Made by a program: the position numbers and the translations under genes. The notes beneath the pieces are model-generated. The model saw only the letters and a program-made list of their open reading frames with translations, was not told where the DNA came from and did no database searches. From a virus: a stretch of 64,000 nt of DNA. This document shows, in pieces, positions 31,047 to 64,000 of this stretch (the stretch's first letter is position 1; each line of letters opens with the position of its first letter). The stretch spans positions 1-64,000 of IMG/VR virus record IMGVR_UViG_3300007609_001486; one strand, given 5' to 3'.

Positions 31047-31397
31047 ATGGACCAACGACTTTCAAAAGCTCTCGAGTTTGCAAACTATTCTCTCACATTA
31101 AGCAATCAGAAAAGAATTCTGCAGGAAAAGTTCTTTGAAGACTGTTTGTATTTCGCACAAGGCAGACAGTTTACAGTTACACCAGTATTAATAAATTTTG
31201 TTTCTTTATTATCCAAAGAATCCAGAGATAACAGTGCAATTATAATTGACGATAACAATACTCCTGTAATAATTTCTGATCTAGAATCCTTTTTGAGTGA
31301 TATTCTTGAATGTTATAGCACAGCCTCTCAAGAATATCACGATAAGTATCTAGAATTATCTAAAAAAAGAAGTGTTGAGAGCTTGATAGATGAATAA
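31047..31397 (+). CDS. Hypothetical protein (116 aa)
   Basis: Strong SD; first gene after the sigma70 promoter; overlaps the next gene. Confidence 0.7.
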   Translation: MDQRLSKALEFANYSLTLSNQKRILQEKFFEDCLYFAQGRQFTVTPVLINFVSLLSKESRDNSAIIIDDNNTPVIISDLESFLSDILECYSTASQEYHDKYLELSKKRSVESLIDE

Positions 31398-32229
31398 TGG
31401 CGCAATACTAGTAGCTAATAATAATGGCCAGATTGACTATGTAAAACAGGCTGTTTTTCTGTCTACTAGAATTAAGAAATATCTAGATTTACCAACTACC
31501 GTTATTACGGATTCTCCCGAATATTTAAAAAATAAATTTGATGTGAGCAATATTGATCAAATTTTAGAGATTCCCTATGTAAACACTGACAACAAAAGAT
31601 TCTATTTTGATGGATCTACTAAACATAAAACACTAATGTTCAAAAACCAATCTAGAACATTGGCGTACTTCATGTCGCCTTATGATAAAACAATAGTGTT
31701 AGACACTGATTTTATTGTATCAAACAGTTTGTTGAAAAATTGCTTCGACAGCCCGAACGATTTAATGATGTATAAAGAAGCCCATGATTTGGCTAATGTA
31801 AGAGATATGCACGAATTTTCGTATGTAAGTGATAAAGGAATAGAATTCTACTGGGCTACAGTAATATATTTTCAAAAAAATAAGAAAAATGATATATTCT
31901 TTGATTTGGTATCCTATATAGAAGATAATTGGCAGCATTATCGGAAAGTATATCAAATCAGTAACTCTATGTTTAGAAACGACTTTGCCTTTAGTATTGC
32001 AATTAATATAATGCAAAATTTTTATCCGGATCAAAGCATAGTAACAAAACTTCCTGGTAAACACTTTTTTACAATAGACAAGGACATCTTATATAAGATT
32101 CATGACGATTATATGATGTTTTTGGTTGAGAAAAAAGATATTATCGGCGAGTACACTCCTATTTCTACAAAGGGTTTAAATGTACATGTTATGAATAAAT
32201 TTAGTTTGGAAAGGTGCATTAATGAGTAG
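31390..32229 (+). CDS. GT-A fold glycosyltransferase-like (nucleotide-diphospho-sugar transferase)
   Basis: SPYDKTIVLDTD (DxD after a hydrophobic strand), WATVIYF, RND.AFSIA, HVMNK. Confidence 0.7.
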   Translation: MNNGAILVANNNGQIDYVKQAVFLSTRIKKYLDLPTTVITDSPEYLKNKFDVSNIDQILEIPYVNTDNKRFYFDGSTKHKTLMFKNQSRTLAYFMSPYDKTIVLDTDFIVSNSLLKNCFDSPNDLMMYKEAHDLANVRDMHEFSYVSDKGIEFYWATVIYFQKNKKNDIFFDLVSYIEDNWQHYRKVYQISNSMFRNDFAFSIAINIMQNFYPDQSIVTKLPGKHFFTIDKDILYKIHDDYMMFLVEKKDIIGEYTPISTKGLNVHVMNKFSLERCINE

Positions 32230-33061
32230 AGGATTTCTTGTGTTGGCGCAAGATGAAAATACATCGGAAGATAAAAAATTAAGTTATATATCTCAGGCCT
32301 GTCTTCTTGCAAAAACTTTAAAAAAACATAATGCGGAAGAAAAAATTTCTGTGGTTACAAATAACAAGATCCAGACTAAGGATTTGAAATACTTTGATAA
32401 AGTTATTTCAATTCCGGGTAACGACGATGCAACAAGTACACAATGGAAAATAGAAAATAGGCATAAACTTTATCAGTGCACTCCTTACGATAACACAATT
32501 GTAATGGACGTTGACATGGTTGTACTTGAGGATATAAGTAGATGGTGGACCTATTTAGAAAAATATGATTTATTTTTTACATCAAATGTAAAAACATATA
32601 GACAAGAACTTGTAACGGAGGATTCTTATAGAAAGGTTTTTACTGCAAATAATCTTCCTAATATTTACACAGGATTACATTACTTTAAAAAATCTAAAAC
32701 CGCAGAAGAGTTTTATAATATGTTAGAACTAATTTGCAATAATTGGAAAGTTTTTTTTGCAGAGTGTTTGCCAAAAAATACGCCACCTGTGTTGAGTATC
32801 GATGTTGCTGCCAGTTTAGCAATAAAAATTTTAGGGATAGAATCACAAGTTCTCACCCCCAAATCCAGCGTCACCTTTACGCATATGAAATCATTGATAC
32901 AAAATTGGAAAACTTATTCAGGAAGCTGGCAAGATAATGTATCTCCATACATAGGACGTAACGGTGATTTAAAAATTGGCAACAGTTTACAAAAAGGTGT
33001 TTTACACTACACAGAAGAAACTTTCCTAGACTGTCCGGGGATAGAAAATTTACATGAATAA
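32222..33061 (+). CDS. GT-A fold glycosyltransferase-like
   Basis: TPYDNTIVMDVD (DxD), LPNIYTGLHYF, FTHMK. Paralogous to the preceding gene. Confidence 0.7.
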   Translation: MSRGFLVLAQDENTSEDKKLSYISQACLLAKTLKKHNAEEKISVVTNNKIQTKDLKYFDKVISIPGNDDATSTQWKIENRHKLYQCTPYDNTIVMDVDMVVLEDISRWWTYLEKYDLFFTSNVKTYRQELVTEDSYRKVFTANNLPNIYTGLHYFKKSKTAEEFYNMLELICNNWKVFFAECLPKNTPPVLSIDVAASLAIKILGIESQVLTPKSSVTFTHMKSLIQNWKTYSGSWQDNVSPYIGRNGDLKIGNSLQKGVLHYTEETFLDCPGIENLHE

Positions 33062-33701
33062 TTTAACAAGTGTTTTTGAAAAAATTAATAAATCGTTGAA
33101 GCAAGAAGTTACTAACTTCGTTTATTACGATAAACAAGGAGATATCAAAAGAATATCTAATACTTTTGAAAAGGATTCTGTTCTGAAATGCATAGAAGTC
33201 CCTCATAATTTAGTAAAAAATTTAATAATTGGAAAACATAAGTTTAGTGAGTATATGGTCTCATATGATAATTCTACAAAATTATTTTCGGTTGTTAATA
33301 AAAAAATAAAATTTCAGTCTTGTCAACTGATATATCAAATTCCTAAATTACAGTTAGACGGCACGGCTTGTAGTATTAATCAGCTCAGAGACAACAACGA
33401 CATGGTAGTAATTCAAAATCTTAAAAACAATGTATGGCAAATTTACATTTCAAAAATCATACTGGCAAATATAAAAAAATATTATAACACTGATTTAAAA
33501 AAACTTATACATATTAGCATTACTGAAGAAAATGATCCTCATATATTTCTAAATTATGTTGATTTACCTACTAATGGTTTTCTAGGCAACGGCCCTATCG
33601 AAATTCCTTTTACAACGTTATTAGAACAAGAAAATAATGGAGTAAGTTTATTTGTTGAGAAATATTTTGATTCATATATCCACGGAGTCCTAAATGACTA
33701 A
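33054..33701 (+). CDS. Hypothetical protein (215 aa)
   Basis: Overlaps both neighbours in the operon; no motif recognised. Confidence 0.6.
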   Translation: MNNLTSVFEKINKSLKQEVTNFVYYDKQGDIKRISNTFEKDSVLKCIEVPHNLVKNLIIGKHKFSEYMVSYDNSTKLFSVVNKKIKFQSCQLIYQIPKLQLDGTACSINQLRDNNDMVVIQNLKNNVWQIYISKIILANIKKYYNTDLKKLIHISITEENDPHIFLNYVDLPTNGFLGNGPIEIPFTTLLEQENNGVSLFVEKYFDSYIHGVLND

Positions 33702-35337
33702 TAAAAAATTTAAAGTAATAGATTATGATATTGTTTATCTCAGTTATGACGAACCAAATGCTGAAAAAAATTATGCCGATTTGTTAACGAAAGTACCTTG
33801 GGCTAAACGTGTACACGGTGTAGAAGGTTCTGATGCAGCACATAAAGAGTGCGCTCGTGTATCAGAGACTGAGAGATTTATCACTATTGACGGGGATAAT
33901 ATCATAAATCCTGAATTTTTGAATCAGGAAATAGACTTTGGGGATAAACAAGGTTTAGAAAACAGTGTTATTAGTTGGGTAGGAAAAAACCAAATTAATG
34001 GACTGATGTATGGCAACGGCGGAATAAAATGCTGGCCAAAAGACTTAGTACTAAATATGCGGACGCATGAACACGCGGATCCTAATAATCCGCATGCACA
34101 AGTAGATTTCTGTTGGGATATTGAATATATTCAGATGAATACTTGTTTTTCTGAGGTGCATAATAATGCAACCCCGCAACAAGCATGGCGAGCAGGTTTT
34201 AGAGAAGGTGTTAAGATGGCCTTAGTTGAAGGAGTAAGGCCCTCGAAAGACGAGTTCTTAAATGGACATTGGAAAAATCTTAACAGACTATGGATTTGGT
34301 TAATGGTAGGCGCTGATGTAAAAAATGGTATGTGGGCGATTTATGGAGCACGTCATGGGCTATATAAAACCATGTGTACAGATTGGGATTATGTAAATGT
34401 AAGAGACTTTGAATACCTTAATAGTTTATGGCGCGAAATAGAAACCGAATTTGACAGTGCTTCTGGAGTTTACGAAGATACTATTGCATATGGAAATATG
34501 TTGCAACAAGAGTTAGATATTCCTATTGCAAGTGAACCTCTGAATCCAGAACAAAGTATTTTCTTTAAAACTGTGTATCAGAATCCAGTCAGGACGCATG
34601 GGCAGTTTATAAAAGAAAGTAAGTCTAATGCAACAGCTACAGAAGAATATGATATTGTAATGATTACATATGGCGAGCCTAATGCAGATGAAAATTACGA
34701 AAATCTAAAATTAAGGTTCCCCCGTGCAAAACGTGTTGATAATGTCGAAGGAATACACAATGCACACAAAAAAGCTGCTACCATTTGTAATACAGATATG
34801 TTTTGGGTAGTAGACGGCGATGCTAAAATAAAAGAAGATTTTAATTTTGAGTATAACGTACCAGAATCTGATAAAAACACTGTACATGTCTGGCGTTGTG
34901 AGAATCCTGTAAATGGATTAATTTACGGATATGGAGGTATTAAGTTATTACCTAGACATCTTACAGAAAACATGGATACAAGCAAGCCCGATATGACCAC
35001 TAGTATTAGTAGGCATTTTAAAGTCGTTAATGAACTATCTAACATTACCAGTTTTAACACAGATGAATTTAATGCATGGCGAAGTGGATTCAGAGAGTGC
35101 TGTAAGTTAGCTTCTAAGGTAATCGATAGGCAAAAGACAGACGAAACAGAAGAACGGCTCAATATCTGGTGTACAGTAGGTGCAGATAAACCGTTTGGTA
35201 ATTTTGCTATTGCTGGCGCAATTGCTGGAAGAAAATATGGCCAAGAGCACACTGGTAATATAGACGCACTTAAAAAAATAAATGATTTTGATTGGTTGAG
35301 AAGACACTATGACGAATACTACAGAAACAACGCTTAA
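33694..35337 (+). CDS. Tandem two-domain glycosyltransferase-like protein
   Basis: Two homologous halves, each with YDIV..xY.EPNA..NY, RV..VEG...AHK, DGD, NGL.YG.GGIK and AWR.GFRE. Confidence 0.65.
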   Translation: MTNKKFKVIDYDIVYLSYDEPNAEKNYADLLTKVPWAKRVHGVEGSDAAHKECARVSETERFITIDGDNIINPEFLNQEIDFGDKQGLENSVISWVGKNQINGLMYGNGGIKCWPKDLVLNMRTHEHADPNNPHAQVDFCWDIEYIQMNTCFSEVHNNATPQQAWRAGFREGVKMALVEGVRPSKDEFLNGHWKNLNRLWIWLMVGADVKNGMWAIYGARHGLYKTMCTDWDYVNVRDFEYLNSLWREIETEFDSASGVYEDTIAYGNMLQQELDIPIASEPLNPEQSIFFKTVYQNPVRTHGQFIKESKSNATATEEYDIVMITYGEPNADENYENLKLRFPRAKRVDNVEGIHNAHKKAATICNTDMFWVVDGDAKIKEDFNFEYNVPESDKNTVHVWRCENPVNGLIYGYGGIKLLPRHLTENMDTSKPDMTTSISRHFKVVNELSNITSFNTDEFNAWRSGFRECCKLASKVIDRQKTDETEERLNIWCTVGADKPFGNFAIAGAIAGRKYGQEHTGNIDALKKINDFDWLRRHYDEYYRNNA

Positions 35338-36163
35338 TTGGGTCAGAGGCCTTTCTTCATATTTTGAATATGAAGGTGATCAAGAAGCTTACAAATTTAT
35401 GCAGTTTTTAGAAAAAGCAATGTATTCAGATAATCCTGTTATTGATACTACAAACCCTAGTGGAATGATTGAGTTTATTAGCATTTTGCGAAAGTTTGCT
35501 CCTAACAAAATTTTTGATATTTTTCACAAATATTATAGGCTAGACAACGATCCGGTTGCTTTACAAGATGCTTTCAGCAGGGGACAAGTCCTAAGTAAAA
35601 TTTGGATAATACAAGAACTAAAAAAAATAAAGGAAGGCAATTTAGGAAATATTTTAGTTTTAGCAGGATGGTTTGGCCAATTTATTTCTTATATCGATAA
35701 CTTTGACTTCGATGATGCAAGAATAATCGAATTAGATAAATCTGCATGTATAGCAAGTGATAGAATATTTAACTTAGACCATATTGAAGGTCATAAAGTC
35801 AAATCTGTTTTAGCTAATATAAATAATCTTGAATTGAATAAGAACGGTTATAATTTAAATGTAAAAACATACCATTCCGATAACGACGAAGGTTATACAC
35901 AACAATTTTTACCTAATCTTATAGTTAACACTAGTTCAGAACATATGTCAGAAGAATGGTTTTTTCAGCTTAAATTTAAAGAGTTAAATTCTGATCCACT
36001 GGTAATAATACAGTCTAACAATTTATTTGACATTGAAGAACACGTAAATTGTGTACACAGCATCGATCACATGAAGAAAAAATATCCCTTTGATCAAATT
36101 TTGTACGAAGGCGAATTAGAACTTTATGGATATAAAAGATTTATGTTAATAGGAAGACCATGA
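35309..36163 (+). CDS. Class I SAM-dependent methyltransferase-like
   Basis: ILVLAGWFG glycine loop, IIELD acidic motif, LIVNTSSEHM, C-terminal YKRFMLIG. Confidence 0.6.
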   Translation: MTNTTETTLNWVRGLSSYFEYEGDQEAYKFMQFLEKAMYSDNPVIDTTNPSGMIEFISILRKFAPNKIFDIFHKYYRLDNDPVALQDAFSRGQVLSKIWIIQELKKIKEGNLGNILVLAGWFGQFISYIDNFDFDDARIIELDKSACIASDRIFNLDHIEGHKVKSVLANINNLELNKNGYNLNVKTYHSDNDEGYTQQFLPNLIVNTSSEHMSEEWFFQLKFKELNSDPLVIIQSNNLFDIEEHVNCVHSIDHMKKKYPFDQILYEGELELYGYKRFMLIGRP

Positions 36164-36387
36164 AATTAGATAATCTTACACTGCGGGAACTGCAAAAAGA
36201 AAGTGCCAGGGCATTAAGCACGATGCAGGCGACAAATAATAACATTTATCAATTTAACAAAGAAGCCCATCATAATAGTCACAATTGGTACAAAGCAGTA
36301 ATAAAATGGTATGTAGCCCAATATGGAGATTTACCAAGCAATATTGGACCTGGTAAAGATATTCAATTAATAGCAGGTGAAAAATGA
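36160..36387 (+). CDS. Small hypothetical protein (75 aa)
   Basis: ATGA overlaps with the genes on both sides. Confidence 0.6.
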   Translation: MKLDNLTLRELQKESARALSTMQATNNNIYQFNKEAHHNSHNWYKAVIKWYVAQYGDLPSNIGPGKDIQLIAGEK

Positions 36388-37109
36388 ATAAAAAGACAAT
36401 TGCTGTTATAGGTTGTAGCTTTAGTCTTCATAGACACAAATATGATACAAAGGTATGGCCCCAACTCCTTGCAGAACGTGTGTCCCCGCAAATAATAGTA
36501 AAAAATTTTTCAATGTTTTGTAACAGTGTGTCTAACCAGTGTCTACAAGCATTGGAAATTGTTAAATCTAAACCAGATTTAATTATAATCCAGTGGACCA
36601 CAGATGGTCGTGTTACCTTTATAGAGGACGCAAACAAGTATAAGCATTTTTTATCCAGCAAAAAATACATGCGAGAATACTCGAAAGGATATTACGAGTA
36701 TGATAGAAATTATTTAGTTACCAAAGAGCAAAAAGCAAAAGGAAATTTTGATAATTACTGTATTCATTTCAATCCTGCAGATTTAGAATTGTATAAAAAT
36801 AAATTTATAGATACATACCAAACTATGTTACTGCACGGAGTAGGACCTTTAGGCGAATTCTCTGATAGATATTCTTATCTGCTTAAATCTTCTATTGCAC
36901 ACGAATGTAAAGAAAATGAGATAGGCTTGATAATGTTTGATTTCTTGGATAGATATCGTAATTGTCAAACACAGCACCTGGATTTCGTTGCAGAGAGAGA
37001 AATAGTTGATTTTCCTAAAAAAGTTGTAGATACAGGGTTTCATTTAGGTCAAGATGGTCATAAAGAATTATCTAAAATTATGTATCCAAAAGTTAACAAG
37101 TTTATTTAG
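36384..37109 (+). CDS. SGNH/GDSL-hydrolase-like protein (esterase/acyltransferase)
   Basis: N-terminal VIGCSFS (block I Ser), IIIQWT...R, and C-terminal DTGFHLGQDGH catalytic-His region. Confidence 0.6.
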   Translation: MNKKTIAVIGCSFSLHRHKYDTKVWPQLLAERVSPQIIVKNFSMFCNSVSNQCLQALEIVKSKPDLIIIQWTTDGRVTFIEDANKYKHFLSSKKYMREYSKGYYEYDRNYLVTKEQKAKGNFDNYCIHFNPADLELYKNKFIDTYQTMLLHGVGPLGEFSDRYSYLLKSSIAHECKENEIGLIMFDFLDRYRNCQTQHLDFVAEREIVDFPKKVVDTGFHLGQDGHKELSKIMYPKVNKFI

Positions 37110-37117
37110 GTTCTATA

Positions 37118-38074
37118 ATGAAGAAATTAAAAGTAGAAAGAGCATCTATAGAAATTTTTGGTGGCTGTAACTATAAATGCGTAATGTGTCCCCAGTCGAA
37201 AGGAAGGGGCTCGTCGTGGACTCGGAAAATGCCATTACCACATTTTGTAAAATTGCTCGATCAATTAGACGGCAATCCTCTTATACAATTAGAAGGTTCG
37301 GGAGAAGCGTTTCTTGCAAAAGACTTAGATTTATATATTGCTGAATGTTCTAAAAGAAATATGAAAACATTCGTTAAAACAAATGGCTCTTTCAACACAA
37401 CTCTTATGGATAAATGTCTAAAAGCGGGGTTGACGTACATCAGATTTAGCGTAATAGGGCATGACAGACTTTCATATAAGAAAAATATGTCTGTTGATAA
37501 CTTTGACTTGATCATGGATAATATAACATATTGTATTGATCAAATAAGAAAAAAGCATTACAATTGCGAAATTAGCATATATCACATTTTATTGTCTTCT
37601 GATGACGAGGAACTCCAAAAATATAAAACAATAGCAAAAAAACTAAACTGTAAATCATATGTTTGGAAAATGCACAATTGGAGCGGTAACATTGATAGTA
37701 AAAATAGAAAAATTGTTAATAAGCGCAGAACTTGTGGCCGACCTTTTGCTAATGAAATTACAATTAGAGCAGGAGGAGAACCGGGCAGATATGGTGCGGT
37801 AACACCCTGCGCACAAACACTAGGACCGCCCAATGAGACAAAGAGTGTATTAGGATATTCTGACAAAGAAAGTTTACATGATATATGGAATGGAGCTTTA
37901 TACAACGAACTAAGAGAAAAACATCTCAAGGAAGACTTTGATAATATAGATTATTGTAAAAAATGTGACTTTTTATATGATGATCCTGACGTGTTAGTTT
38001 GGACAAATGATGAGGCTACCGATGTAGGTGATATACAAGGGACTAGCCTAAATTTATTAAGGCATTTAAAATGA
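37118..38074 (+). CDS. Radical SAM protein with C-terminal SPASM/Twitch domain (rSAM #1)
   Basis: CNYKCVMC (CX3CX2C), GSGE, C-terminal CGRPF...PC...LG...IWNG...LRE...CKKC. Confidence 0.9.
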   Translation: MKKLKVERASIEIFGGCNYKCVMCPQSKGRGSSWTRKMPLPHFVKLLDQLDGNPLIQLEGSGEAFLAKDLDLYIAECSKRNMKTFVKTNGSFNTTLMDKCLKAGLTYIRFSVIGHDRLSYKKNMSVDNFDLIMDNITYCIDQIRKKHYNCEISIYHILLSSDDEELQKYKTIAKKLNCKSYVWKMHNWSGNIDSKNRKIVNKRRTCGRPFANEITIRAGGEPGRYGAVTPCAQTLGPPNETKSVLGYSDKESLHDIWNGALYNELREKHLKEDFDNIDYCKKCDFLYDDPDVLVWTNDEATDVGDIQGTSLNLLRHLK

Positions 38075-41329: not shown

Positions 41330-41350
41330 AAAAATAATTTCCTTAAATAC

Positions 41351-41379: not shown

Positions 41380-41385
41380 AGTGTA

Positions 41386-54653: not shown

Positions 54654-54658
54654 ATTTT

Positions 54659-56396: not shown

Positions 56397-56962
56397 AAAA
56401 TAAATTTTGTTTCGATTTAAAACTTCCAATTAGCGGACCATTAAATAATTTTAAATGTATATACAGGAACGATGCAGAGCCAGACATTTTCTTCATAGAT
56501 CATTCTGACGTAAGCGAAGATTATAAAAATTGGATAAGTGAATGTGGATTAATAATGACATATCCGCCTTTGATTTTTTATACACCCATTGGACATCAAA
56601 TAGGTGTTCACATAGACGGTCCTGGCAAAGTTATGGATAGGGCTTGTATGAACTGGTGCGTACAAGGAGCAGGGAGTCTAATGCACTGGTACGAAGTTAA
56701 AGCAGGGTGTTCTCCATTTGAAGAAACAGAGACACAAGCCGGCACACCATATACACAATACCATCCTAAGGATCTAAATCATCTTCATAGTCAAACTGTT
56801 AAATGGCCTAGTGTTGTTCAAACAGGAATACCCCACAATGTTCATAATAGCACTTGGGAGCCTAGGTGGACAATTAGTTGCGATCTAAGTTTTAAAGATA
56901 CTCCTGAACAAGGACTCACAATGTTTCAAGCACAGGAAATATTTTTTAAATGGATGATTTAG
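56393..56962 (+). CDS. 2OG-Fe(II) oxygenase-like / cupin protein
   Basis: HID...PHNVHN....RWTIS; TTG start overlapping the previous stop. Confidence 0.6.
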   Translation: MKNKFCFDLKLPISGPLNNFKCIYRNDAEPDIFFIDHSDVSEDYKNWISECGLIMTYPPLIFYTPIGHQIGVHIDGPGKVMDRACMNWCVQGAGSLMHWYEVKAGCSPFEETETQAGTPYTQYHPKDLNHLHSQTVKWPSVVQTGIPHNVHNSTWEPRWTISCDLSFKDTPEQGLTMFQAQEIFFKWMI

Positions 56963-57663
56963 ATATTCAATTTTACAAAGCTAATAAAAATAAAACCTTC
57001 AAATTAGAACAATTACCGGATGGAACTTATGAGTATCAAGCTATGTGGATTATGGAGCAAAGACACATTGGGTGGTTAGAACTGGAATGCAATCACCCAG
57101 TTGAAATCTACAATGAATTGGAATATTATCTTCATAGAGGACACGAAACACATGTTGGGTGGAGCAGTGTGTGTTTACATGGGCTTGGAGCTGATAAAAT
57201 AGCTACTGCTCCTACATATGGTTATAATGAGTTTACTGCTCCTTACACTTTTACAGATATTTCAACATATTTTCCTAAAACCGTTGAATATTGGAAAAAA
57301 TTTCCTGCAGAGCGGTTTACAAGAATACGATTTATGAAACTTGAAGCAGGGGGGAGCATTAGTGTACACAATGACAACTATGAAAATGTACCAGAAGATT
57401 TTAATCCTTTAGATGGTATACTGCCTATTAATGTTGCAATAGTTCATCCTGATAATTGCGATATGATTATAGAAGATTGCGGGTCAGTGCCTTTTACTTC
57501 TGGCAAAGTTTTTCTAATTAACGTAGCAAAAAATCACATGGTAGTAAATAACTCCAACAAAGATAGAATACACCTTATATCAAACATTATTTTAGGAAAT
57601 AAACGAAGTGAATTTTGTAAATTACTGGTAAGAAGTTATGAAAAATGTTATAACCTTCAATAA
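56950..57663 (+). CDS. Aspartyl/asparaginyl beta-hydroxylase-like 2OG-Fe(II) oxygenase
   Basis: RIRFMKLEAGG.I..HND...HMVVNNS..DRIHLI. Confidence 0.8.
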   Translation: MDDLDIQFYKANKNKTFKLEQLPDGTYEYQAMWIMEQRHIGWLELECNHPVEIYNELEYYLHRGHETHVGWSSVCLHGLGADKIATAPTYGYNEFTAPYTFTDISTYFPKTVEYWKKFPAERFTRIRFMKLEAGGSISVHNDNYENVPEDFNPLDGILPINVAIVHPDNCDMIIEDCGSVPFTSGKVFLINVAKNHMVVNNSNKDRIHLISNIILGNKRSEFCKLLVRSYEKCYNLQ

Positions 57664-59050
57664 AACATCCCAAGAAATAGTATTTTGTATTGTAGATAAC
57701 ACTGCAAAAATAAAACATGATTGGACCAGAGAAATTATTAAAAACTTATCTGATTTTGTCTTATCGAATATAATACAAAAAGGCTATACTGTATTACAGG
57801 GTGTTTCTGAGGAAGCATTGTTAAGAGAAAGTGCGTCAAAGTATAAACATGCTGTAGTTATATCCACCGGAACAGAGTTTTTAAATGGAGATAATTTTTT
57901 TAAAGCTATTGAAAAGGCAACTTTTCAAGATTATTTTATACAAGGTCATGTTGCTGATAGAAAGGATGGTTACTATGAACTACACGATCAATGTTATTTA
58001 ATTAATTTAAGTATCTATAAGAAGTTAGGTTATCCTTCAATTGGTAGCTTTTCTTATTACGATTCACATGAACAAATAGAACCACATAGAAGTGATGAAA
58101 ACATTCACGATGATTATACGCCAGTGTGGATAAAACCGGGCTCATCAAGGCGGAGATACGAGCATAAGTGGCATGGATGGAATATATTATCAATTGCATT
58201 AGATAATAATTTACCTGTAATAGTATTCAATGAAGATATAAGAAATAATAAAAAATTTTATTATCCTGATTATGAACCTTCATTTCAACTGGCTCATGAG
58301 TACTTGTATGGCAAGCAAATTATAAGTAGCCAGGCTTTCTTTTATCCTTTCAACACTGAACAATACAATACTTCGAATGTAGATTCTATAAATCAGTTAG
58401 TAACACAGGCAAGTGGCCTTAATTGGATCGATTACTTAATTAATAATAATTATTCTAAAGGAACAATTGTAAATTTTGTAGACAATAATACATTTGCATT
58501 AGAAACAATGAAATATATCACTGAATGGAACGGCGAAGATTATCCCCAAATGCTTGAAGACTACGTGCTATCTAGAAGTAGTTTTATGAAGGTATCAAAA
58601 AATAATAGATTAGCAAATATGGATGATCCTTTAACTACATGTTGGGAATATTTTCTAGAACAACATCCTAATTGGAAGGATACGTGGCAAGATATCAAAC
58701 ATAAGGTACAATTTAAATTCACTCATGCAGACTTAGTCCTTAATAAATCACTACCGATTGAACATTGGTTAGAGGAAAAAACAAACACACTTATTAATTT
58801 AAGTCATATTTTTAATTATGATCCAGTTGCTCCATTTATTCCTCTTCAATTGCGTGTAAATAATGAGAATAATCTTATAAAGAAGATTAGACAATATATG
58901 CCTGATGCAACTATTATATTTAGCGCAAGATCTGCAGAAGGTTTTTTTGATTCGTCACCTAACCATTATGTATGCCAAGCAAGTAAAATGCCTTTGGTTA
59001 CCATAAAGGATTTGACTTTCCCCACATGGCGTTATGGGGAGTGGTTATGA
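57638..59050 (+). CDS. Hypothetical protein (470 aa), possibly transferase-like
   Basis: Long ORF overlapping both neighbours; no diagnostic motif recognised. Confidence 0.55.
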   Translation: MKNVITFNKTSQEIVFCIVDNTAKIKHDWTREIIKNLSDFVLSNIIQKGYTVLQGVSEEALLRESASKYKHAVVISTGTEFLNGDNFFKAIEKATFQDYFIQGHVADRKDGYYELHDQCYLINLSIYKKLGYPSIGSFSYYDSHEQIEPHRSDENIHDDYTPVWIKPGSSRRRYEHKWHGWNILSIALDNNLPVIVFNEDIRNNKKFYYPDYEPSFQLAHEYLYGKQIISSQAFFYPFNTEQYNTSNVDSINQLVTQASGLNWIDYLINNNYSKGTIVNFVDNNTFALETMKYITEWNGEDYPQMLEDYVLSRSSFMKVSKNNRLANMDDPLTTCWEYFLEQHPNWKDTWQDIKHKVQFKFTHADLVLNKSLPIEHWLEEKTNTLINLSHIFNYDPVAPFIPLQLRVNNENNLIKKIRQYMPDATIIFSARSAEGFFDSSPNHYVCQASKMPLVTIKDLTFPTWRYGEWL

Positions 59051-59640
59051 AGATAGCAATTACGGGGCACACAAGCGGTATAGGTAAAGGTATATATACC
59101 TTTTATAGACGTAGAGCAGTTGAAGTGAAAGGATATAGTTTAGATAATGGCTATAATATTAATGAATACGAATCTATTCTTAAAGATAGTGCAGATTGTA
59201 ACATTTTTATAAACAATGCCTATAGTCATTATAAGCAAAGTGAGATAATTTCTACTTGGGGCGAAATGCATAAAAATTATAAACATTTAATTATTAGTAC
59301 AAGTAGTATAGCTGCAGAGCCGCTATTAGAAATAGAAAAAATATTTCCCCATCTCGTACCATACGGCGAAGAAAAATATGCTATTAATAAAGCAAGTTGG
59401 TTTTTAAATCACAGCGGCTCTAGATGTAAATCCAGCGTTATTATGCCAGGGGTAGTAGAAACTAATTTTTATAATCCCTACGACACAGAAGACGAAAACG
59501 GAATAGAATTATATAATCAAGTCATGAATACCAATAGTATAATCACTGTTGACGATTTAGTTAAGACTGTAGATTTTATTATTCAAAGTTGGAACGGAAG
59601 AAACTTTATAGCAAGTATGACGGTGTTAAATGCTTATTAA
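59047..59640 (+). CDS. Short-chain dehydrogenase/reductase
   Basis: KIAITGHTSGIG, FINNA, TSS, Y-x3-K (YAINK), PGVVET. Confidence 0.8.
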   Translation: MKIAITGHTSGIGKGIYTFYRRRAVEVKGYSLDNGYNINEYESILKDSADCNIFINNAYSHYKQSEIISTWGEMHKNYKHLIISTSSIAAEPLLEIEKIFPHLVPYGEEKYAINKASWFLNHSGSRCKSSVIMPGVVETNFYNPYDTEDENGIELYNQVMNTNSIITVDDLVKTVDFIIQSWNGRNFIASMTVLNAY

Positions 59641-60049
59641 AGATTGGATAGATAGAATTTCAAAACCGCAAGAATTACTAGGAGGATATTCAGTGTGTCC
59701 TTATTCTAGGCATGCGCAGTATGAAATAGTACAAGTATATGGGCGTAATATAGTTGTTCCAAATGCAGACTTTGACTTAATAATTTATATACTTTCGGAT
59801 AACTTTTCTCAAATACAAGTTGAAAGTATAGCAAAGGAGTATAATCTACTGTACAAGGAATTGGTTTTCTTACCAGATCCTAAAGATCGATATACAGAAA
59901 TCAATGGCGTAAAAACAAATAATGGTGAACAGAATCTAATACTTTGCCAACCAAGAGCTAAATTAAGAAAAGCAAGAGAAAATCTGTCTAAAACAGATTA
60001 TTATAGTTTCTGGAGTGAAGATTATCTTCGGGAGATCTTAGATACATGA
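59630..60049 (+). CDS. Hypothetical protein (139 aa) with N-terminal CPY motif
   Basis: WI...S.....LGG.SVCPY and C-terminal YYSFWS; in-operon overlaps. Confidence 0.55.
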   Translation: MLIKDWIDRISKPQELLGGYSVCPYSRHAQYEIVQVYGRNIVVPNADFDLIIYILSDNFSQIQVESIAKEYNLLYKELVFLPDPKDRYTEINGVKTNNGEQNLILCQPRAKLRKARENLSKTDYYSFWSEDYLREILDT

Positions 60050-61119
60050 CATGCTGGACAGAGTACGATCCGTTAAAGGAAATAATTGTAGGAGATTGTA
60101 ATCAGCCCGGCGATTTTGATTGGTTCCTTGACGAAAGAGTAAAATCAAAATTCAATCTAATACTAGAAGAAACAAAAGAAGATTTACAAAATCTTAGCGA
60201 GTATCTATCCGGTTTAGGTATTCGTGTGCATAGGCCTAAACCTACAAAGTTTGAAAGTCGAGTCAGTTTAGGAAGTTTTACAATCCCTAATCCTGCAAGT
60301 CCTATAGTTCCCAGGGATCAGTATTTGGCATACAATAATATTATCATACAAACTTATACAAGTATGGTAGATAGATATTTAGATAGTGCAACATATTACC
60401 ACATCTTTAAAGAACAATTTGATAAGGGCATTAATTGGATTAGTATGCCACCGCCTGTGTTAATAGATATAGGAGAAACAGAAAAGTGGTGGATAAAGGG
60501 CGAAGAAATTTATCATGATATATTAAAAGATAGATTGCTATGGCATACAGCAACCATGTATAAATTAGGTGATACATTGATTACAAACACAAAAGGTCCT
60601 GGTAATTATAACGGTTTAGAATGGATGACAAGGAATCTTCCTAATATTAAAATTATCGAAAATACACAAACGCATCAGCAAGGATATGGGCATATTGATC
60701 ACGGCTGGTTTATGACAGACGACGAAACAGTATTTTGTGTTGATAAAAGTTGGGTTCCATTAGTGCTCCTTGACAAAGAGATTATTGAGTTGCATAAATT
60801 TTTTGATCCTTTTGACGATCAAAAATTCTTTATGGATTACAATAGTACTGGCGGAAAATACAGTGTAGATTGGTTAGATAAATGGTTAAACGGCTGGAAG
60901 GGTTACGCACAGGAATGTTTTTTTGATACCAACGTTTTAGTCCTAGATAAGGAAAATATACTATTCACAAACGAACAACCTCGTATATTTAAATTAATGG
61001 AAAATAGAGGAATCAACTGTCACGTAGTTCCGCAAAGACACAGTTTCTTCTGGGAGGGCGGCGTTCATTGCTTAACTTTAGATTTGGTCAGGGATGGCAG
61101 TTGTAGATCGGTTATATGA
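60046..61119 (+). CDS. Amidinotransferase (glycine / inosamine-phosphate amidinotransferase family)
   Basis: EYDPLKEIIVG, PRD, HID and the catalytic GGVHCLTLD terminus of the pentein fold. Confidence 0.85.
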   Translation: MTCWTEYDPLKEIIVGDCNQPGDFDWFLDERVKSKFNLILEETKEDLQNLSEYLSGLGIRVHRPKPTKFESRVSLGSFTIPNPASPIVPRDQYLAYNNIIIQTYTSMVDRYLDSATYYHIFKEQFDKGINWISMPPPVLIDIGETEKWWIKGEEIYHDILKDRLLWHTATMYKLGDTLITNTKGPGNYNGLEWMTRNLPNIKIIENTQTHQQGYGHIDHGWFMTDDETVFCVDKSWVPLVLLDKEIIELHKFFDPFDDQKFFMDYNSTGGKYSVDWLDKWLNGWKGYAQECFFDTNVLVLDKENILFTNEQPRIFKLMENRGINCHVVPQRHSFFWEGGVHCLTLDLVRDGSCRSVI

Positions 61120-62322
61120 TGCTAGTGCACTTATAAGTCTCTTTGATAACTCTATAAAATAATCATCAGTTGCAGATAATGGGATAATTATCAAAAGTCC
61201 ATCCCCTGCTTCGTTAAACATACCGCTGCTCAATCCAAACTTTTTAAAATGACTTTCCAGGGTATCTTGATTTTCTAAGTAATTTTCATTTAACAGATTA
61301 AGATTAAATACCAGTCCGTGGTTGTTAAAGCCTTTTATAAGATTCTCTTGTTTTAGTTTTTCGAATAAAGAAACGGCTGAATTTTTTATCGCAGAATGAT
61401 TTTTTAGAATTTGTTCTTTTTCTAGAATATCCATATATTCTAAAACACTGTAGATGCCACTTAGGCTGAAACTATATGAGAATCCATGCAGTAACGGCAA
61501 ATTCATTATTGTTTGGTATATAATGTCATTTACAAGTGTTGCACTCAATGGATAAAAGCCACCTGTAAACCCTTTACCCATTGTGAATATATCAGGCTGT
61601 ATCAAAGTTTCCCCATGTTCGTTTTTCCATCCAAACATGTTTCCGGTTTTTCCTCCGCACATTGCAATATCGTCAACTATCAAAATCACATCGTTTTCAG
61701 TGCAGACACGTCTAAGTTTTTGCCAAAATTCCTGTGTCACAGGCTTCAGTCCATCCTGCCAGCTACAAGTCTCAATGACAACACATAGTGTGTTACTCCA
61801 GTCTCTGTCCAGGTCTGTTTCCTGTCTTCTCAAAGTAACACAATTACCTTCTCTGCCATATATATGATGCATGTCTCTGGTATCTGCAATACTGCTACTT
61901 AAGAATGTGCTACCGTGATAACTGTTTTCAAAACCTATTATCTCTTTCCTGTCTTGATTTTTTGCAACATTATATAGATGTGCAACTCTAATTGCACCCT
62001 CTATGGCATCACTGCCCGATAAGCTGAAAATACTACGATACCCGCCGCTTAAGTCAAACAGTTTAGATGCAAGTGTCTGAATGACTGAGTTAGAAGTTTT
62101 GAACTCGCCGCTACAAAAAGGTGTGTCTTTTATTTTTTCGCCTACCTTATCAACAATATCAGTTCTATCAAACCCTAGTGTAAAACACCCGCAGTTCCCC
62201 ATACTGAGATCAATAAAATTAACATTGTCCTCATAAAAACCAAAAGACCAGTATTTTTCTAAAAGTCTATATTCTTCTAGATTATCGTTTATTGCGTAAG
62301 GAAAAAGTGCTCGGGATATCAT
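61078..62322 (-). CDS. Class III PLP-dependent aminotransferase
   Basis: SGSDAIEGA, SYHGST, LIVDDIAMCGGKTG, PDIFTMGKGFTGG (PLP Lys), HGFSY. Confidence 0.9.
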   Translation of the reverse strand: MISRALFPYAINDNLEEYRLLEKYWSFGFYEDNVNFIDLSMGNCGCFTLGFDRTDIVDKVGEKIKDTPFCSGEFKTSNSVIQTLASKLFDLSGGYRSIFSLSGSDAIEGAIRVAHLYNVAKNQDRKEIIGFENSYHGSTFLSSSIADTRDMHHIYGREGNCVTLRRQETDLDRDWSNTLCVVIETCSWQDGLKPVTQEFWQKLRRVCTENDVILIVDDIAMCGGKTGNMFGWKNEHGETLIQPDIFTMGKGFTGGFYPLSATLVNDIIYQTIMNLPLLHGFSYSFSLSGIYSVLEYMDILEKEQILKNHSAIKNSAVSLFEKLKQENLIKGFNNHGLVFNLNLLNENYLENQDTLESHFKKFGLSSGMFNEAGDGLLIIIPLSATDDYFIELSKRLISALASYNRSTTAIPDQI

Positions 62323-62347: not shown

Positions 62348-62956
62348 TTATATTACACTTAAGGTTAAAGATATTCTTTTACTACCTGGATTTATATTTT
62401 CTACACTATGGATTTTATTTGCTGGTAATAAATGCCATCTGTCTAATGGCACTTTTATTTCTTCCTTCTTTGTAACTTTATCATAAGGAATAAACATTTG
62501 TGGGTGTATCCAGGTATTATCCTTGTAGTCATTTAATTCATAAAATATTAACGAAACATCTCCGCCTGTTTGTATCAGATAATTATAAGCCTTGGATCTT
62601 AATTCGTCTATGTGAGGAGGTATAATCGATCCTTCTTCCATTACTTGAATATTAATGGAATCGTATTTGATTGGAATATGTGTATTAACCCATTTACTTA
62701 TAGTGTCAGATACATCTATAAAACTATATTTTACTAGTCCGGGAAATCTTTCACGTGCTTCTTGTCCGCTGTACCCTAGTTTAGATTTGTTAATATTAGG
62801 ATCATATGCATTTTCTACTAAGTTTAGAATCTCCTCAGAAGAACTTATAAGAAGTGTGTCCAAACGAGTATTTTCGCTTTTAGCTACTACATCAAATATT
62901 TCTTGTTTTATTTCTTCAGGCATTAAGGGATATGCAGGATATTTTAAGTATGCCAT
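62348..62956 (-). CDS. 2OG-Fe(II) oxygenase-like protein
   Basis: IPPHID...IHSVEN....RISLTL. Confidence 0.65.
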   Translation of the reverse strand: MAYLKYPAYPLMPEEIKQEIFDVVAKSENTRLDTLLISSSEEILNLVENAYDPNINKSKLGYSGQEARERFPGLVKYSFIDVSDTISKWVNTHIPIKYDSINIQVMEEGSIIPPHIDELRSKAYNYLIQTGGDVSLIFYELNDYKDNTWIHPQMFIPYDKVTKKEEIKVPLDRWHLLPANKIHSVENINPGSKRISLTLSVI

Positions 62957-62964
62957 TATTTGTT

Positions 62965-63999
62965 TTATATACCTTCCTTGTTCGTCCGAAAATAACCATG
63001 CAGGACAGCATCTGTATTAGTCTTACAACTAGACATATTTCGAATCTGTATTTTTTTCCATGCCTCAAAATCTTTAATAATTTCCACTTCTCTTCCTGTG
63101 ATATGATTTTTTGCAACCTGTTTATTTATAAAGCCCAACCCTGCAAGAATCTGATTCCATGCATTATATCCTATACTATTTTCTTTGTTAGGAACATCAG
63201 ATGCTGTAAGTAAACGAGTCTTAGAAATGTCAATAATATTTTTAACGAAATCTGTAGCAATGTCAGATTTCTTTATGTAATCCCAAAACGGAGATCCTGA
63301 TTTTCCCCCTAAATAATGCAAAATTATAAAATCTTTGATTTCGTCATACATTTCTGTAATTTCTTCGTTATATTTTTTGAAGTCATTTGAACCTATATAA
63401 TCTACAAATTTTTGTATTTGAATTATTGTTGCATGTATGCTCGTGGCCTCTAACGGTTCAATAAAAGCACTAGCTAACCCTAATGCCAAACAATTTTTCC
63501 GCCAAGGCGCATCTAATCTTCCTGAATCAAACTTAATTTGTTTTATAGGGGTTATTTCGTGTCCTAATAAGGCTTCGATTTCATTTTGTGCTTCATTAAA
63601 GGTTATAAACTTGTCACAAAATACGTAGCCGCATCCGAACCTTTCTGCAGTTGGTATCTGCCACATCCAGCCCGCACTTAAGGCTTTTGAAATGGTCAAG
63701 GGTTTAGGCCAAACTGGCGGAACATAGTCTAAAACAAATGGCATAGCACTGTTCATAAGTAGGTGTCTGTTATAACTTACCCATTTTGCACCTAGGCTCT
63801 TCATTAAAGTTTGCGCAAATCCTGTGCAATCTATAAAGAAATCCCCAGGTATAGTCATATTATTAGATAACTTTAATGAGTCTATAGCGTTATTTTCATT
63901 ATGGATTATTTTTTCAACTGTTGCATCAATAACTGAACCGCCCATAGAGAGAACACGCTTTTTAAAAAATTTGCCAACTTTACTTCCGTCAAAATGAAA
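62965..63999 (-). CDS. Flavin-dependent halogenase (tryptophan 7-halogenase/PrnA family); 5'-truncated by the window edge
   Basis: The frame is open to the window end (FHFDG...). Contains FFIDCTGF, GWMWQIP (WxWxIP), GYVF and GLASAFIEPLEATSIH. Confidence 0.88.
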   Translation of the reverse strand, partial: FHFDGSKVGKFFKKRVLSMGGSVIDATVEKIIHNENNAIDSLKLSNNMTIPGDFFIDCTGFAQTLMKSLGAKWVSYNRHLLMNSAMPFVLDYVPPVWPKPLTISKALSAGWMWQIPTAERFGCGYVFCDKFITFNEAQNEIEALLGHEITPIKQIKFDSGRLDAPWRKNCLALGLASAFIEPLEATSIHATIIQIQKFVDYIGSNDFKKYNEEITEMYDEIKDFIILHYLGGKSGSPFWDYIKKSDIATDFVKNIIDISKTRLLTASDVPNKENSIGYNAWNQILAGLGFINKQVAKNHITGREVEIIKDFEAWKKIQIRNMSSCKTNTDAVLHGYFRTNKEGI

Positions 64000-64000
64000 A

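Follow-up and report, generated by a model that had tools for sequence, protein, structure and literature searches.

A radical SAM-rich gene island in the tail-fibre region of a jumbo myovirus is most likely a hypervariable block for building and tailoring glycans

Here we describe a large array of enzyme genes that adjoins the tail-fibre genes of an uncultured jumbo myovirus, represented by the linear IMG/VR virus contig IMGVR_UViG_3300007609_001486 (82,510 bases), of which bases 1-64000 form the window analysed here. A CheckV completeness of 23% implies a genome of roughly 356 kb. The array, hereafter the island, spans 31047-75457 (44.4 kb), has fibre-type genes on both sides and contains 16 radical S-adenosylmethionine (SAM) genes, 13 within the window and three beyond it (64000-75457). 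It is most likely a hypervariable block for building and tailoring sugars or glycans inside the tail-fibre region. Tailoring-type enzymes dominate, together with glycosyltransferases (GTs), and a heavily decorated glycan or sugar adduct, put forward in an earlier reading of the letters alone (the original prediction), is the best reading of its product. That prediction placed about 34 tightly coupled genes at 31047-64000. The array is real, with 36-37 open reading frames (ORFs) in this interval that mostly overlap by a few bases, but it does not stop at 64000 and runs on to contig position 75457. All 13 radical SAM genes that had been counted were recovered with Pfam and NCBIfam (37118-54619). 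What has been shown is which genes the island contains, their folds and position, how they are conserved and that they have bacterial counterparts. Genes are named below by their lowest coordinate (Table 1).

Borders and integrity of the island

Bases 1-31001 are coding on the plus strand only and specify a lysozyme-domain protein, a baseplate hub, a gp25-like wedge and a gp6-like wedge protein (PHROG 10646, 989 bits), the last being 33-35% identical to proteins of the jumbo phages Salicola SCTP-2, Agrobacterium Atu_ph07 and Serratia BF. Megablast against cultured phages revealed no close relative of the window; the nearest cultured types are SCTP-2, Atu_ph07 and the RsoM2USA type, and the window phage is itself a distant jumbo relation of T4-like phages and not a pelagimyophage. 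A giant structural protein of 4692 aa (8368-22446) is 42% identical to proteins of 4639-4806 aa in two long related phage contigs, G001 (256 kb) and G005 (147 kb); it is distant kin of RsoM2USA ORF361 and may be the equivalent of VrlC, which borders the host recognition cluster (HRC) of pelagimyophages. Next come three fibre genes (23086-28864) with a common N-terminal part of 200-300 aa and differing C-terminal parts, then two more paralogues, 28875 and 30030 (28875-31001), that are 33% identical to each other. The whole set (23086-31001) looks like a series of alternative receptor-binding proteins mounted on one attachment domain.

Beyond position 64000 the island continues with the rest of a halogenase gene, a 2-oxoglutarate (2OG)-Fe(II) oxygenase, a class I methyltransferase, a second halogenase (contig 65796-67343), a radical SAM protein with an HMPTM-type zinc ribbon, an AdoMet decarboxylase (contig 71173-71607) and two paralogous radical SAM proteins of ~540 aa. 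The gene that closes it encodes a fibre-like protein with an Mtd_N domain, the N-terminal domain of the BPP-1 major tropism determinant. Just outside, on the minus strand (contig 78243-80729), is a gene pair for a DUF2201 metallopeptidase/VWA-like protein and a MoxR-type AAA ATPase, 66-82% conserved in G001 and G005.

An array of this kind could in principle arise as an artefact, from a cellular contig joined to a phage contig near 31 kb, and both the fall in GC content at the junction (from ~0.39 to 0.34) and the close bacterial relatives of the core genes would fit. A break in coverage or read pairs near position 31000, named beforehand as the sign of such a join, is not seen: a 5394-base Logan contig covers 28816-34209 with 0 differences, and read depth is even, at 7-9x, across 25000-44500 in the Logan assembly of the only run that holds the stretch. 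This run is probably the source sample, so that the comparison brings in a different assembler but not different data. Phage genes flank the island on both sides, the genes at the junction are shared with G001, G005 and the complete RsoM2USA genome, and the GC content of the island is below that of both flanks in G001 and G005 as it is in the phage of the window. A dip of this sort is usual for flexible islands. Because an independent assembly bridges the junction and the island sits at the same place in three other phage lineages, we conclude that it is genuine, phage-borne and not chimeric, and the chance of a false join is negligible. Several loose contig ends lie at 34180-36213 in the Logan assembly, where one weak joint (23 letters on its shorter side) skips 34824-36191; they reflect either an internal repeat in 33694 that breaks assemblies or co-occurring strains that differ in the segment of 35309 and the C-terminal half of 33694.

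A conserved core, a variable periphery and bacterial counterparts

Orthologues of 42493, at 84-90% identity, are present in 262 IMG/VR contigs, and five long relatives have 8-19 radical SAM genes each. We surveyed 40 related loci over 10 kb to either side of the 42493 orthologue, counting genes of at least 60% identity as orthologues. Every locus had 42493, and 39021 was found in 36, 36160 in 35 (~75% identity), 49013 in 24 and 46027 in 20; orthologues of 37118, 36384 and 38071 occurred in 0 of the 40, and the remaining twitch paralogues gave paralogue-level matches only (22-37%). The 75-aa protein of 36160 may act as a partner, a carrier or a substrate. G001 and G005 have a common gene order, in which the giant protein and the fibre paralogues precede genes resembling 31047, 31390, 32222, 33054 and the N-terminal half of 33694 (33694N), followed by a long enzyme array, the Mtd_N gene and the DUF2201/MoxR pair. 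Always between the fibre paralogues and the Mtd_N gene, the island measures 44 kb in the window phage, 56 kb in G001 and ~50 kb in G005. The original prediction had called for a check on whether the array stays linked to tail genes in related phages, and it abuts fibre genes in every lineage examined. Between the window and G001 or G005, structural proteins share only 35-55% identity, and among G000, G001 and G005 the core radical SAM proteins (63-87%) are better conserved than the baseplate and fibre proteins.

A minimal version of the island is found in RsoM2USA, a cultured Ralstonia phage and the sole match to 33694 in a tblastn search of 50,697 phage records. This mini-island, ORF354-347, stands behind the giant ORF361 and a fibre with the common N-terminal domain, and its order is that of 31047, 31390 (35%), 32222 (36%), a gene in the place of 33054 with no detectable similarity to it, 33694N (45%), one twitch radical SAM gene, the C-terminal half of 33694 (33694C, 41.5%) and 35309 (26%). 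ORF361, 359 and 356 were identified in virions by mass spectrometry, and the island enzymes are not mentioned in the paper on that genome (PMC8504454). The locus at the first N_Twi match in RsoM2USA was considered as its island and rejected, being a lone paralogue with the mini-island elsewhere in the genome. A twitch radical SAM gene directly follows the 33694N gene in G001, G005 and RsoM2USA alike, and in G001 and G005 variable cassettes of ~15 kb separate the 33694 halves. These arrangements suggest that the island expands through insertions into a unit made up of GT-N, radical SAM, GT-C and methyltransferase genes. Two genes for GT8 enzymes, the GT-A-like pair, one gene with a methyltransferase fold and three for radical SAM proteins make up the conserved core, and the block of oxygenase, halogenase, amidino- and aminotransferase genes appears as a lineage-specific periphery. 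Near the distal end of the G001 island is one polytopic membrane protein with at least 9 hydrophobic segments (G001:C1:187613-188902).

Three GT-like genes had been proposed from the sequence, and all three are upheld by predicted fold: 32222 is GT8-like, with 31390 assigned by homology to it, and 33694 has a GT-A/nucleotide-diphospho-sugar-transferase fold. GT8 enzymes are retaining transferases that use UDP-sugars and have a GT-A fold with a DxD motif. The DxD of 32222 is invariant (D96/D98), and its model matches glycogenin (E 2.2e-8), the LH3 GT domain and LgtC (2.6e-6) in Foldseek, with a TM score of only 0.4 and a poorly modelled C-terminal third; neither 31390 nor 32222 matches Pfam Glyco_transf_8 at E<=0.01. 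For 33694 (model pLDDT 85) the top Foldseek match is SunS (1.4e-5), accompanied by WrtF, PBCV-1 A64R and TarS/P. Its residues 4-160 (VIA) give equal Z scores, 8-9.7, to glycosyltransferases and to cytidylyl- and guanylyltransferases. Although 33694 itself has no Pfam match, it has at least 8000 environmental homologues, some of them fused to PF00535. Its two halves are separate genes in G001, G005, RsoM2USA and bacteria and are fused in the window phage. In phages and bacteria, a homologue of 35309 always adjoins that of 33694C. The 31047 protein is without a Pfam family.

Membership of the radical SAM superfamily was judged by CX3CX2C and the PF04055 gathering score (29.5 bits), which 11 of the 13 window genes exceed; 40055(-) scores 26.8 bits and the frameshifted 41371, 33% identical to 39021, scores 22.9. 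Six genes surpass the cut-off (170 bits) of NF033640 (N_Twi_rSAM), with 417, 379, 374, 331, 238 and 237 bits over model positions 1-398. They fit this family in having a Cys-rich N-terminal twitch domain, seen as Pfam SPASM at residues ~10-100 ahead of Radical_SAM, followed by a CX3CX2C motif (C147/C151/C154) that is invariant across the six. NF033640 is a sequence model alone and to our knowledge has no characterised member, so that neither substrate nor reaction can be read from it. All-against-all BLAST separates these six from a subfamily B (39021, 41371/41939 and 50121), a subfamily C (46027, 49013 and 52468(-)) and one classical SPASM protein (37118). A PDB sequence search with 49013 gave marginal anSME and PqqE matches only, and no long fused forms of 42493 were found, which is weak evidence. 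A frameshift at an A8 run (~41996-42003), also present in the Logan contig, divides the subfamily B gene 41371-42463, for which relatives have one uninterrupted frame; this may mean a true pseudogene, a site of slippage or a homopolymer error in both assemblies. A TTGACC-17-TATTAT element precedes an in-frame ATG at 41386.

Counterparts of the core are found on bacterial chromosomes. NF033640 scores above its cut-off in 79 of 301 Bdellovibrionota genomes, often in many copies, in 4 of 401 Bacteroidota genomes, one of these matches being probably a mis-binned phage contig, and in 0 of 14 controls. Orthologues of 42493 in Bdellovibrionota are 55-63% identical to the phage protein (59-63% in long chromosomal contigs), and one such contig, G007:C50, is truly chromosomal, encoding PEPCK, polyphosphate kinase, Ppx and ETF-QO. 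The core genes of the phage are clustered in long chromosomal contigs: 42493, 49013, 39021, 44718 and 46027 are accompanied by genes like 33694 (34-44%), 35309 (~30%) and 48454, and the 39021 orthologue adjoins those of 42493 and 49013. No homologue of 31047, 31390, 32222, 33054 or 36160 was found in the Bdellovibrionota loci examined, and in the phage soluble GT8 enzymes appear to take the place of the pathway's membrane-bound end. A quick maximum-likelihood tree, rooted with paralogues and sampling two phyla, unites all phage 42493 orthologues in one clade (SH-aLRT 100) nested among those of Bdellovibrionota, with deeper supports of 84-93. Such nesting fits a single transfer from bacteria of this kind.

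Among 98 non-radical-SAM neighbours from 14 bacterial loci, a pooled Pfam scan was led by GT2 families (9, 8, 5 and 4 members), with GDSL and PMT_2 at 3 each, and ABC_tran, ABC2_membrane and QueC at 2 each. This has the make-up expected of an ABC-transporter-type envelope-glycan locus. Mainly because of this glycan-type neighbourhood we read the radical SAM enzymes as sugar-tailoring enzymes and not as peptide maturases. The N-terminal extension of a 716-aa bacterial N_Twi protein had no match, and in the literature nothing relevant was found that ties Bdellovibrio radical SAM enzymes to lipopolysaccharide (LPS) or concerns twitch-domain radical SAM sugar epimerases. Many Bdellovibrionota genomes have several N-terminal-twitch radical SAM arrays, with up to ~36 first-look candidates per genome (for example G171:C1 at 1.40-1.43 Mb, G280:C15 at 0.63-0.67 Mb, and G008:C275), and these appear to be an undescribed hallmark of the phylum; they hint at where the phage genes came from or at which hosts this phage lineage infects. 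Two Flavobacteriales contigs from metagenome-assembled genomes, PXYQ01000183.1 and JBDNIA010000282.1 (Arcticimaribacter, Crocinitomicaceae), have 82% identical 42493 orthologues in a phage-like gene order and are probably phage fragments mis-binned by composition or coverage. Conversely, a 349-kb contig (G006:C34) that had been a candidate whole jumbo phage was ruled out, since it belongs to a Bdellovibrionota genome sample and has no baseplate homologue.

The periphery is more heterogeneous. Profile or structure-sequence matches bear out the class III aminotransferase, amidinotransferase and tryptophan-halogenase family proteins recognised in the original prediction. It had also named six HxD..H oxygenases; 54512 and 56950 are confirmed by profile, but the other four have the motif only, supplemented for 55318 by a lead from ESM Atlas. 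For 54512 the ATG at 54659 fits better as a start than the annotated TTG, which is probably an error. In the G007 bacterial array, a 39% homologue of 56950 forms part of a fused protein of 808 aa. The 55318/55863 pair are possibly divergent Asp/Arg-hydroxylase-like cupins, a lead that comes from viral ESM Atlas clusters, in one of which 19% of members have PF05118. Among the putative oxygenases, hhalign of single sequences links only the obvious paralogue pairs. A weak structural likeness to Fringe and GT2-type GT-A enzymes is no more than a lead for 57638. Amidinotransferase 60046, with paralogues in G001, G005 and bacterial arrays, has the catalytic-Cys GGxHC motif of the GME superfamily, and the solved structures nearest to 61078 are BioA and omega-, putrescine and polyamine:pyruvate transaminases. 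At full length (62965-64449, minus strand) the halogenase matches PF04820 at 6.9e-88 over model positions 1-450, and the second copy at 1.3e-88.

Other assignments made earlier are fainter: the methyltransferase at 35309, the QueC-like protein at 43886, homologues of which occur in bacterial arrays, and the two short-chain dehydrogenases/reductases (SDRs) at 48454 and 59026 are candidates suggested by motifs or sub-threshold matches, and the SGNH assignment of 36384 comes from its motif. These weak ORFs were examined by motifs, PHROGs, PDB sequence search, single-sequence hhalign and ESM Atlas; PHROGs gave almost nothing for ten unassigned ORFs, and PDB sequence searches with 43886, 32222, 62348 and 56393 gave no meaningful match. 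In agreement with the original prediction, Pfam found no nonribosomal peptide synthetase (NRPS), polyketide synthase (PKS), transporter or replication gene in the island.

Table 1. Features of the island; positions are those of the window unless the contig is named.
Feature	Position	Strand	Evidence
Sigma-70-like promoter, TTGACA-17-TATACT, TG-extended	30998-31026	+	Followed by AGGAGG and ATG of 31047
Small conserved protein opening the island, phage-specific	31047-31397	+	30-44% identity, same position, G001/G005/RsoM2USA
GT8-like GT-A glycosyltransferase 1	31390-32229	+	Paralogue of 32222; invariant PYD..T..LD.D; 35-47% in G001/G005/RsoM2USA
GT8-like GT-A glycosyltransferase 2	32222-33061	+	AlphaFold model pTM 0.73; Foldseek
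Conserved phage-specific protein	33054-33701	+	25-28% identity, same position in G001/G005; no family match (Pfam, PHROGs)
Tandem-duplicated GT-A/nucleotide-diphospho-sugar-transferase-fold core protein	33694-35337	+	DGD in each half, invariant
Methyltransferase-fold core protein	35309-36163	+	Weak Spermine_synth E 0.0078, below cut-off
75-aa protein	36160-36387	+	Uniform full-length conservation; directly upstream of 39021 orthologue; no Cys
SGNH/GDSL-like candidate, lineage-specific	36384-37109	+	GCSFS motif alone; no profile match
Radical SAM with C-terminal SPASM, lineage-specific	37118-38074	+	PF04055 1.4e-11, PF13186 1.1e-8
Lineage-specific protein	38071-39021	+	No family (Pfam, PHROGs)
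Radical SAM subfamily B, core trio	39021-40103	+	PF04055; 63% in G001/G005, 42-45% in Bdellovibrionota
N-terminal-twitch radical SAM	40055-41329	-	NF033640 237.5 bits; TATAAATA box 41368-41361
Radical SAM subfamily B, split	41371-42463	+	Frames 41371-42012 and 41939-42463
N-terminal-twitch radical SAM, core trio, best conserved gene of the island	42493-43905	+	NF033640 417 bits
PP-loop ATPase, QueC-like	43886-44725	+	SGGADS; C-terminal CGECWWC (CxxCxxC); PHROG QueC-like E 4e-4
N-terminal-twitch radical SAM	44718-46037	+	NF033640 373.7 bits; up to 48-51% in Bdellovibrionota
Radical SAM subfamily C	46027-47238	+	PF04055 4.5e-10; ~40% in Bdellovibrionota
N-terminal-twitch radical SAM	47225-48469	+	NF033640 238.3 bits
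Short Rossmann/SDR-like protein	48454-49020	+	Motif; no Pfam match; 37-42% homologues within bacterial arrays
Radical SAM subfamily C, core trio	49013-50128	+	PF04055 1.6e-13; 83-87% in G001/G005, 59-66% in Bdellovibrionota
Radical SAM subfamily B	50121-51173	+	PF04055 9.2e-12; 34.5% identical to 39021
N-terminal-twitch radical SAM	51130-52485	+	NF033640 378.9 bits
Radical SAM subfamily C	52468-53361	-	PF04055 1.9e-11
N-terminal-twitch radical SAM	53354-54619	-	NF033640 330.9 bits; SPASM and Radical_SAM
Asp/Asn-beta-hydroxylase-type oxygenase (54512)	54646-55327	+	PF05118 3.8e-5; TATAAATA box 54646-54653
Two paralogous small HxD-motif proteins	55318-55866, 55863-56396	+	33% mutual identity
HxD-motif oxygenase candidate	56393-56962	+	Motif only; no profile or PDB support
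Asp/Asn-beta-hydroxylase-type Fe/2OG oxygenase	56950-57663	+	PF05118 3.1e-10
Viral protein family	57638-59050	+	ESM Atlas TM 0.40 to Fringe cluster, 0.37/0.55 to GT2-bearing cluster
SDR-like protein	59026-59640	+	TGHTSGIG, YxxxK; PHROG FabG-like E 0.0039
Small protein	59630-60049	+	Weakly conserved in G001/G005, ~25% identity
Amidinotransferase	60046-61119	+	PDB phmmer HsvA 8.5e-23, StrB1 6.8e-18, SxtG, AGAT; C-terminal GGVHC
Class III (omega-type) aminotransferase	61078-62322	-	PF00202 1.2e-41
HxD-motif oxygenase candidate	62348-62956	-	Motif only; no PDB-sequence support
Flavin-dependent halogenase family	62965-64000 (to contig 64449)	-	PF04820 2.8e-63 for in-window C-terminal 344 aa
Island-closing fibre-like gene, Mtd_N domain	contig 75407-76645	-	Followed by DUF2201/MoxR pair

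A proposed pathway and the alternatives to it

According to the pathway that we propose, the conserved core would make or edit an unusual sugar unit through its two GT-A-fold halves, the methyltransferase-fold protein, the 75-aa partner and three radical SAM enzymes of different subfamilies. The changeable enzymes (radical SAM enzymes, Fe/2OG hydroxylases, halogenases, amino- and amidinotransferases, a PP-loop amidotransferase-like enzyme, SDRs and methyltransferases) would then diversify this unit, and the two phage-specific soluble GT8 enzymes encoded at the fibre-proximal end would attach it to an acceptor accessible from the cytoplasm. That acceptor would most likely be the fibre or baseplate proteins of the virion, the island thereby providing a variable coat on the adsorption apparatus. 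The sugar substrate, the order of the steps and the acceptor are what we infer, and we give the full proposal with a virion acceptor a probability of roughly 35%.

The virion is favoured as acceptor because the island of the window phage contains no membrane protein, flippase or GT-C; no transmembrane protein was predicted there or in the island of G005. It is favoured too because the GT8 pair and 31047/33054 are phage-specific, and because the nearest GT8 structures include glycogenin and LH3, which glycosylate proteins. Precedents from mycobacteriophages and giant viruses point the same way: mycobacteriophages have GT operons next to their structural genes that glycosylate the virion, and the genomes of chloroviruses and mimiviruses encode glycan machinery of their own.

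A further reason for favouring the virion comes from signals for expression. The T4 late-promoter box TATAAATA occurs 7 times on the contig, and 4 of these boxes head transcription units, one being the Mtd_N fibre gene. They lie 5-31 nt before the first ATG of 40055-41329(-), where the box at 41368-41361 is ~31-32 nt upstream, of the units from 54659 and from 65161 onward, and of the Mtd_N gene, that is, of three enzyme sub-operons and one fibre gene. In the window the box is less frequent than chance would give (4 found, 9.5 expected), and it is by position only that it has meaning. At 54646-54661 and contig 65148-65163 it stands just 5 nt before the ATG, without a Shine-Dalgarno sequence, which suggests leaderless late mRNAs for these two units. 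The 46-nt gap before 31047 holds the best sigma-70-type match of the region, which is a consensus match and no proof of use. G005 has TTGACA-17-TACAAT at the homologous place and G001 nothing clear; sigma-70-type matches in the island are not enriched over shuffles, and the best one is suggestive solely through where it lies. Late expression, as for the fibre gene, is thus probable for parts of the island, whose head may be read by host polymerase.

Several points weigh against this pathway or its virion acceptor. Pfam recognised no sugar-nucleotide synthesis genes in the island (nucleotidyltransferase, 4,6-dehydratase or DegT-type aminotransferase), and on its model 33694 cannot be told apart from a sugar nucleotidyltransferase by fold. 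Because no NF033640 enzyme has a known substrate, a sugar substrate for the island's members is suggested by neighbourhood only. The fibre sequences give no sign of a glycosylation motif. GT8 enzymes are classically those of the LPS core, seroconversion genes also lie beside tailspike genes in known phages, and Asp/Asn hydroxylases, halogenases and SPASM/twitch radical SAM enzymes are typical of peptide modification as well. Finally, a strong sigma-70-type head promoter in two of three lineages would fit early expression and a host-directed role.

About equally likely as a virion acceptor is one in the host envelope, reached by the same sugar chemistry. At the inner membrane face, the soluble enzymes would modify precursors of LPS core, O-antigen or capsule as these are being made, host export machinery would carry the product out, and the receptor of the neighbouring fibres would be changed, resulting in serotype conversion, superinfection exclusion or less loss of progeny on debris. 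LgtC, from the classical LPS-core family, is among the fold matches of 32222, the bacterial core orthologues lie in loci with GT2, PMT_2 (ArnT/PMT-type GT-C), GDSL and ABC-2 exporter genes, the sigma-70-like promoter at the island head fits early expression, and the G001 island has its one 9-transmembrane protein. Such a role is also the published reading of the pelagimyophage HRC, which likewise has GT8 and radical-SAM cassettes (PMC7029224). However, the islands of the window phage and G005 lack membrane protein, flippase, polymerase and GT-C genes, several sub-operons have the late-type TATAAATA box in common with the fibre gene, and an island that takes up 12-16% of the estimated genome would be a heavy investment for exclusion. 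Moreover, the Ralstonia host of RsoM2USA lies outside the phylum of the bacterial cassette, so that plugging into a host homologue would not be general.

Both acceptors are considerably better placed than a free small molecule, either liberated at lysis or retained intracellularly, with nothing attached to a macromolecule, which we consider improbable. An aminoglycoside- or nucleoside-like product, or an amidinated, hydroxylated or halogenated polyamine, would make sense of an amidinotransferase nearest to HsvA and StrB1, a transaminase of omega/putrescine type, the AdoMet decarboxylase, the spermine-synthase-like fold of 35309, and the halogenases with many tailoring oxygenases; a cyanophage trio of amidinotransferase, aminotransferase and radical SAM genes has been read as 'antibiotic synthesis' (PMC12801897). 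Yet no scaffold synthase (cyclitol synthase, NRPS or PKS), resistance gene or exporter was found in the island, and the amidino-, amino- and halogenase genes lie in its variable part, outside the conserved core. The minimal island of RsoM2USA has only GT-like genes, one radical SAM gene and a methyltransferase-fold gene, and the fixed place between fibre genes would be left unexplained.

Less probable still is modification of peptide or protein side chains, either RiPP-like (as in ribosomally synthesised and post-translationally modified peptides) or as cross-linking, epimerisation or methylation of fibre proteins, with GTs adding sugars afterwards. The SPASM/twitch radical SAM proteins do match many NCBIfam peptide-maturase models, but weakly and in all cases far below the cut-offs; Asp/Asn beta-hydroxylase and Trp-halogenase family members are present, and the top Foldseek match of 33694, SunS, is a peptide S-glycosyltransferase. 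The conserved 75-aa protein adjoining a core radical SAM gene might be taken for a precursor, but it is evenly conserved along its length, and no precursor-like ORF with a variable core, RiPP recognition element, leader peptidase or exporter was seen in the island. There are no intergenic gaps holding precursor ORFs and no peptidase or transporter, a protein substrate encoded elsewhere being possible, and the bacterial neighbourhoods are dominated by glycosyltransferases and not by RiPP families. Hypermodification of phage DNA bases (glycosyl, aminoalkyl or 7-deazapurine-type adducts) is very unlikely: a QueC-like PP-loop enzyme is present, and GTs, pyridoxal phosphate enzymes and radical SAM enzymes occur in known pathways of this kind, but the island has no TGT/DpdA, dNMP hydroxymethylase, kinase or other nucleotide-metabolism gene by Pfam, lies in the structural and not the replication module, and has its bacterial counterparts in glycan-type loci.

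Relation to known systems and significance

The original prediction called the array a candidate new system. This was an overstatement, since hypervariable islands with GT8 genes and radical-SAM cassettes beside fibre genes had already been published (PMC7029224), and it is further weakened by the orthology of the core enzymes to a widespread chromosomal cassette of Bdellovibrionota. The HRC of pelagimyophages and cyanomyophages is hypervariable, has a mean size of 44.6 kb and has GT8 as its commonest GT (Zaragoza-Solas et al., 2020; PMC7029224). As in the present case, it is a large variable island inside the structural region, placed beside fibre genes and after a giant structural gene; its radical-SAM cassettes differ between close relatives, and Asp/Asn beta-hydroxylases are found in those phages. 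It differs in belonging to T4-like phages of 140-250 kb on SAR11 and cyanobacteria, whereas the present phage is a jumbo of ~356 kb with a far higher density of radical SAM genes (16), and neither a conserved core nor orthology to Bdellovibrionota is described for it. Its borders are VrlC and the neck gene gp14, and no gp14 was seen on the present contig. A marine T4-like genome with 12 radical SAM genes was noted in 2017 (PMC5332604), and the cyanophage trio mentioned above in 2025.

The glycan systems of mycobacteriophages, chloroviruses and mimiviruses resemble the island in combining soluble virus-encoded GT-A enzymes with methyltransferases by structural genes, and A64R is itself among the fold matches of 33694. 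They differ in having few GTs and in drawing on common sugar nucleotides or on a small number of sugar-modifying enzymes, and we know of none with radical SAM arrays, halogenases or amidinotransferases. Freeman et al. (2023), cited in PMC12801897, reportedly concerns virion glycosylation of this kind. GtrABC O-antigen conversion likewise links glycan modification by phages to the tailspike or fibre region and to receptor specificity. GtrABC consists of three membrane proteins of temperate phages, the flippase GtrA, the bactoprenol GT2 GtrB and a GT-C, and the island contains no Pfam match to GT2, GtrA or GT-C and no transmembrane protein. Aminoglycoside and guanidino-sugar pathways (StrB1, class III transaminases, BtrN) have a similar logic in their StrB1/HsvA-related amidinotransferase, omega transaminase, SDRs and twitch radical SAM enzymes; here, however, no cyclitol or scaffold synthase was found, the genes concerned lie in the variable part of the island, and the twitch domain is N-terminal in the island enzymes where that of BtrN is C-terminal.

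The kind of island is therefore already known. To this the window adds the full extent and both borders, the fused form of 33694, the distinction between a core and a lineage-specific periphery, and evidence against chimerism. It links a hypervariable phage region to a chromosomal cassette of about a quarter of the sampled Bdellovibrionota genomes. The island holds two or three radical SAM subfamilies without a characterised member, and the core-enzyme orthologues of the 262 contigs and at least 8000 GT-like homologues are all annotated as 'hypothetical'. RsoM2USA offers a cultured and genetically approachable minimal version, ORF354-347, in which product and acceptor are directly addressable.

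It is a tentative possibility, and we would not put it higher, that radical-SAM-tailored glycans on fibres or baseplate form a new class of virion modification, in which the core trio builds an unprecedented sugar and swappable cassettes diversify it, with NF033640 representing new radical SAM sugar chemistry and the same pathway decorating the envelope of the predatory Bdellovibrionota. If so, the cassettes would be a determinant of host range or anti-defence that evolves like receptor-binding proteins. If the product decorates virions or receptors, it would constitute an overlooked layer of phage-host specificity in aquatic systems.

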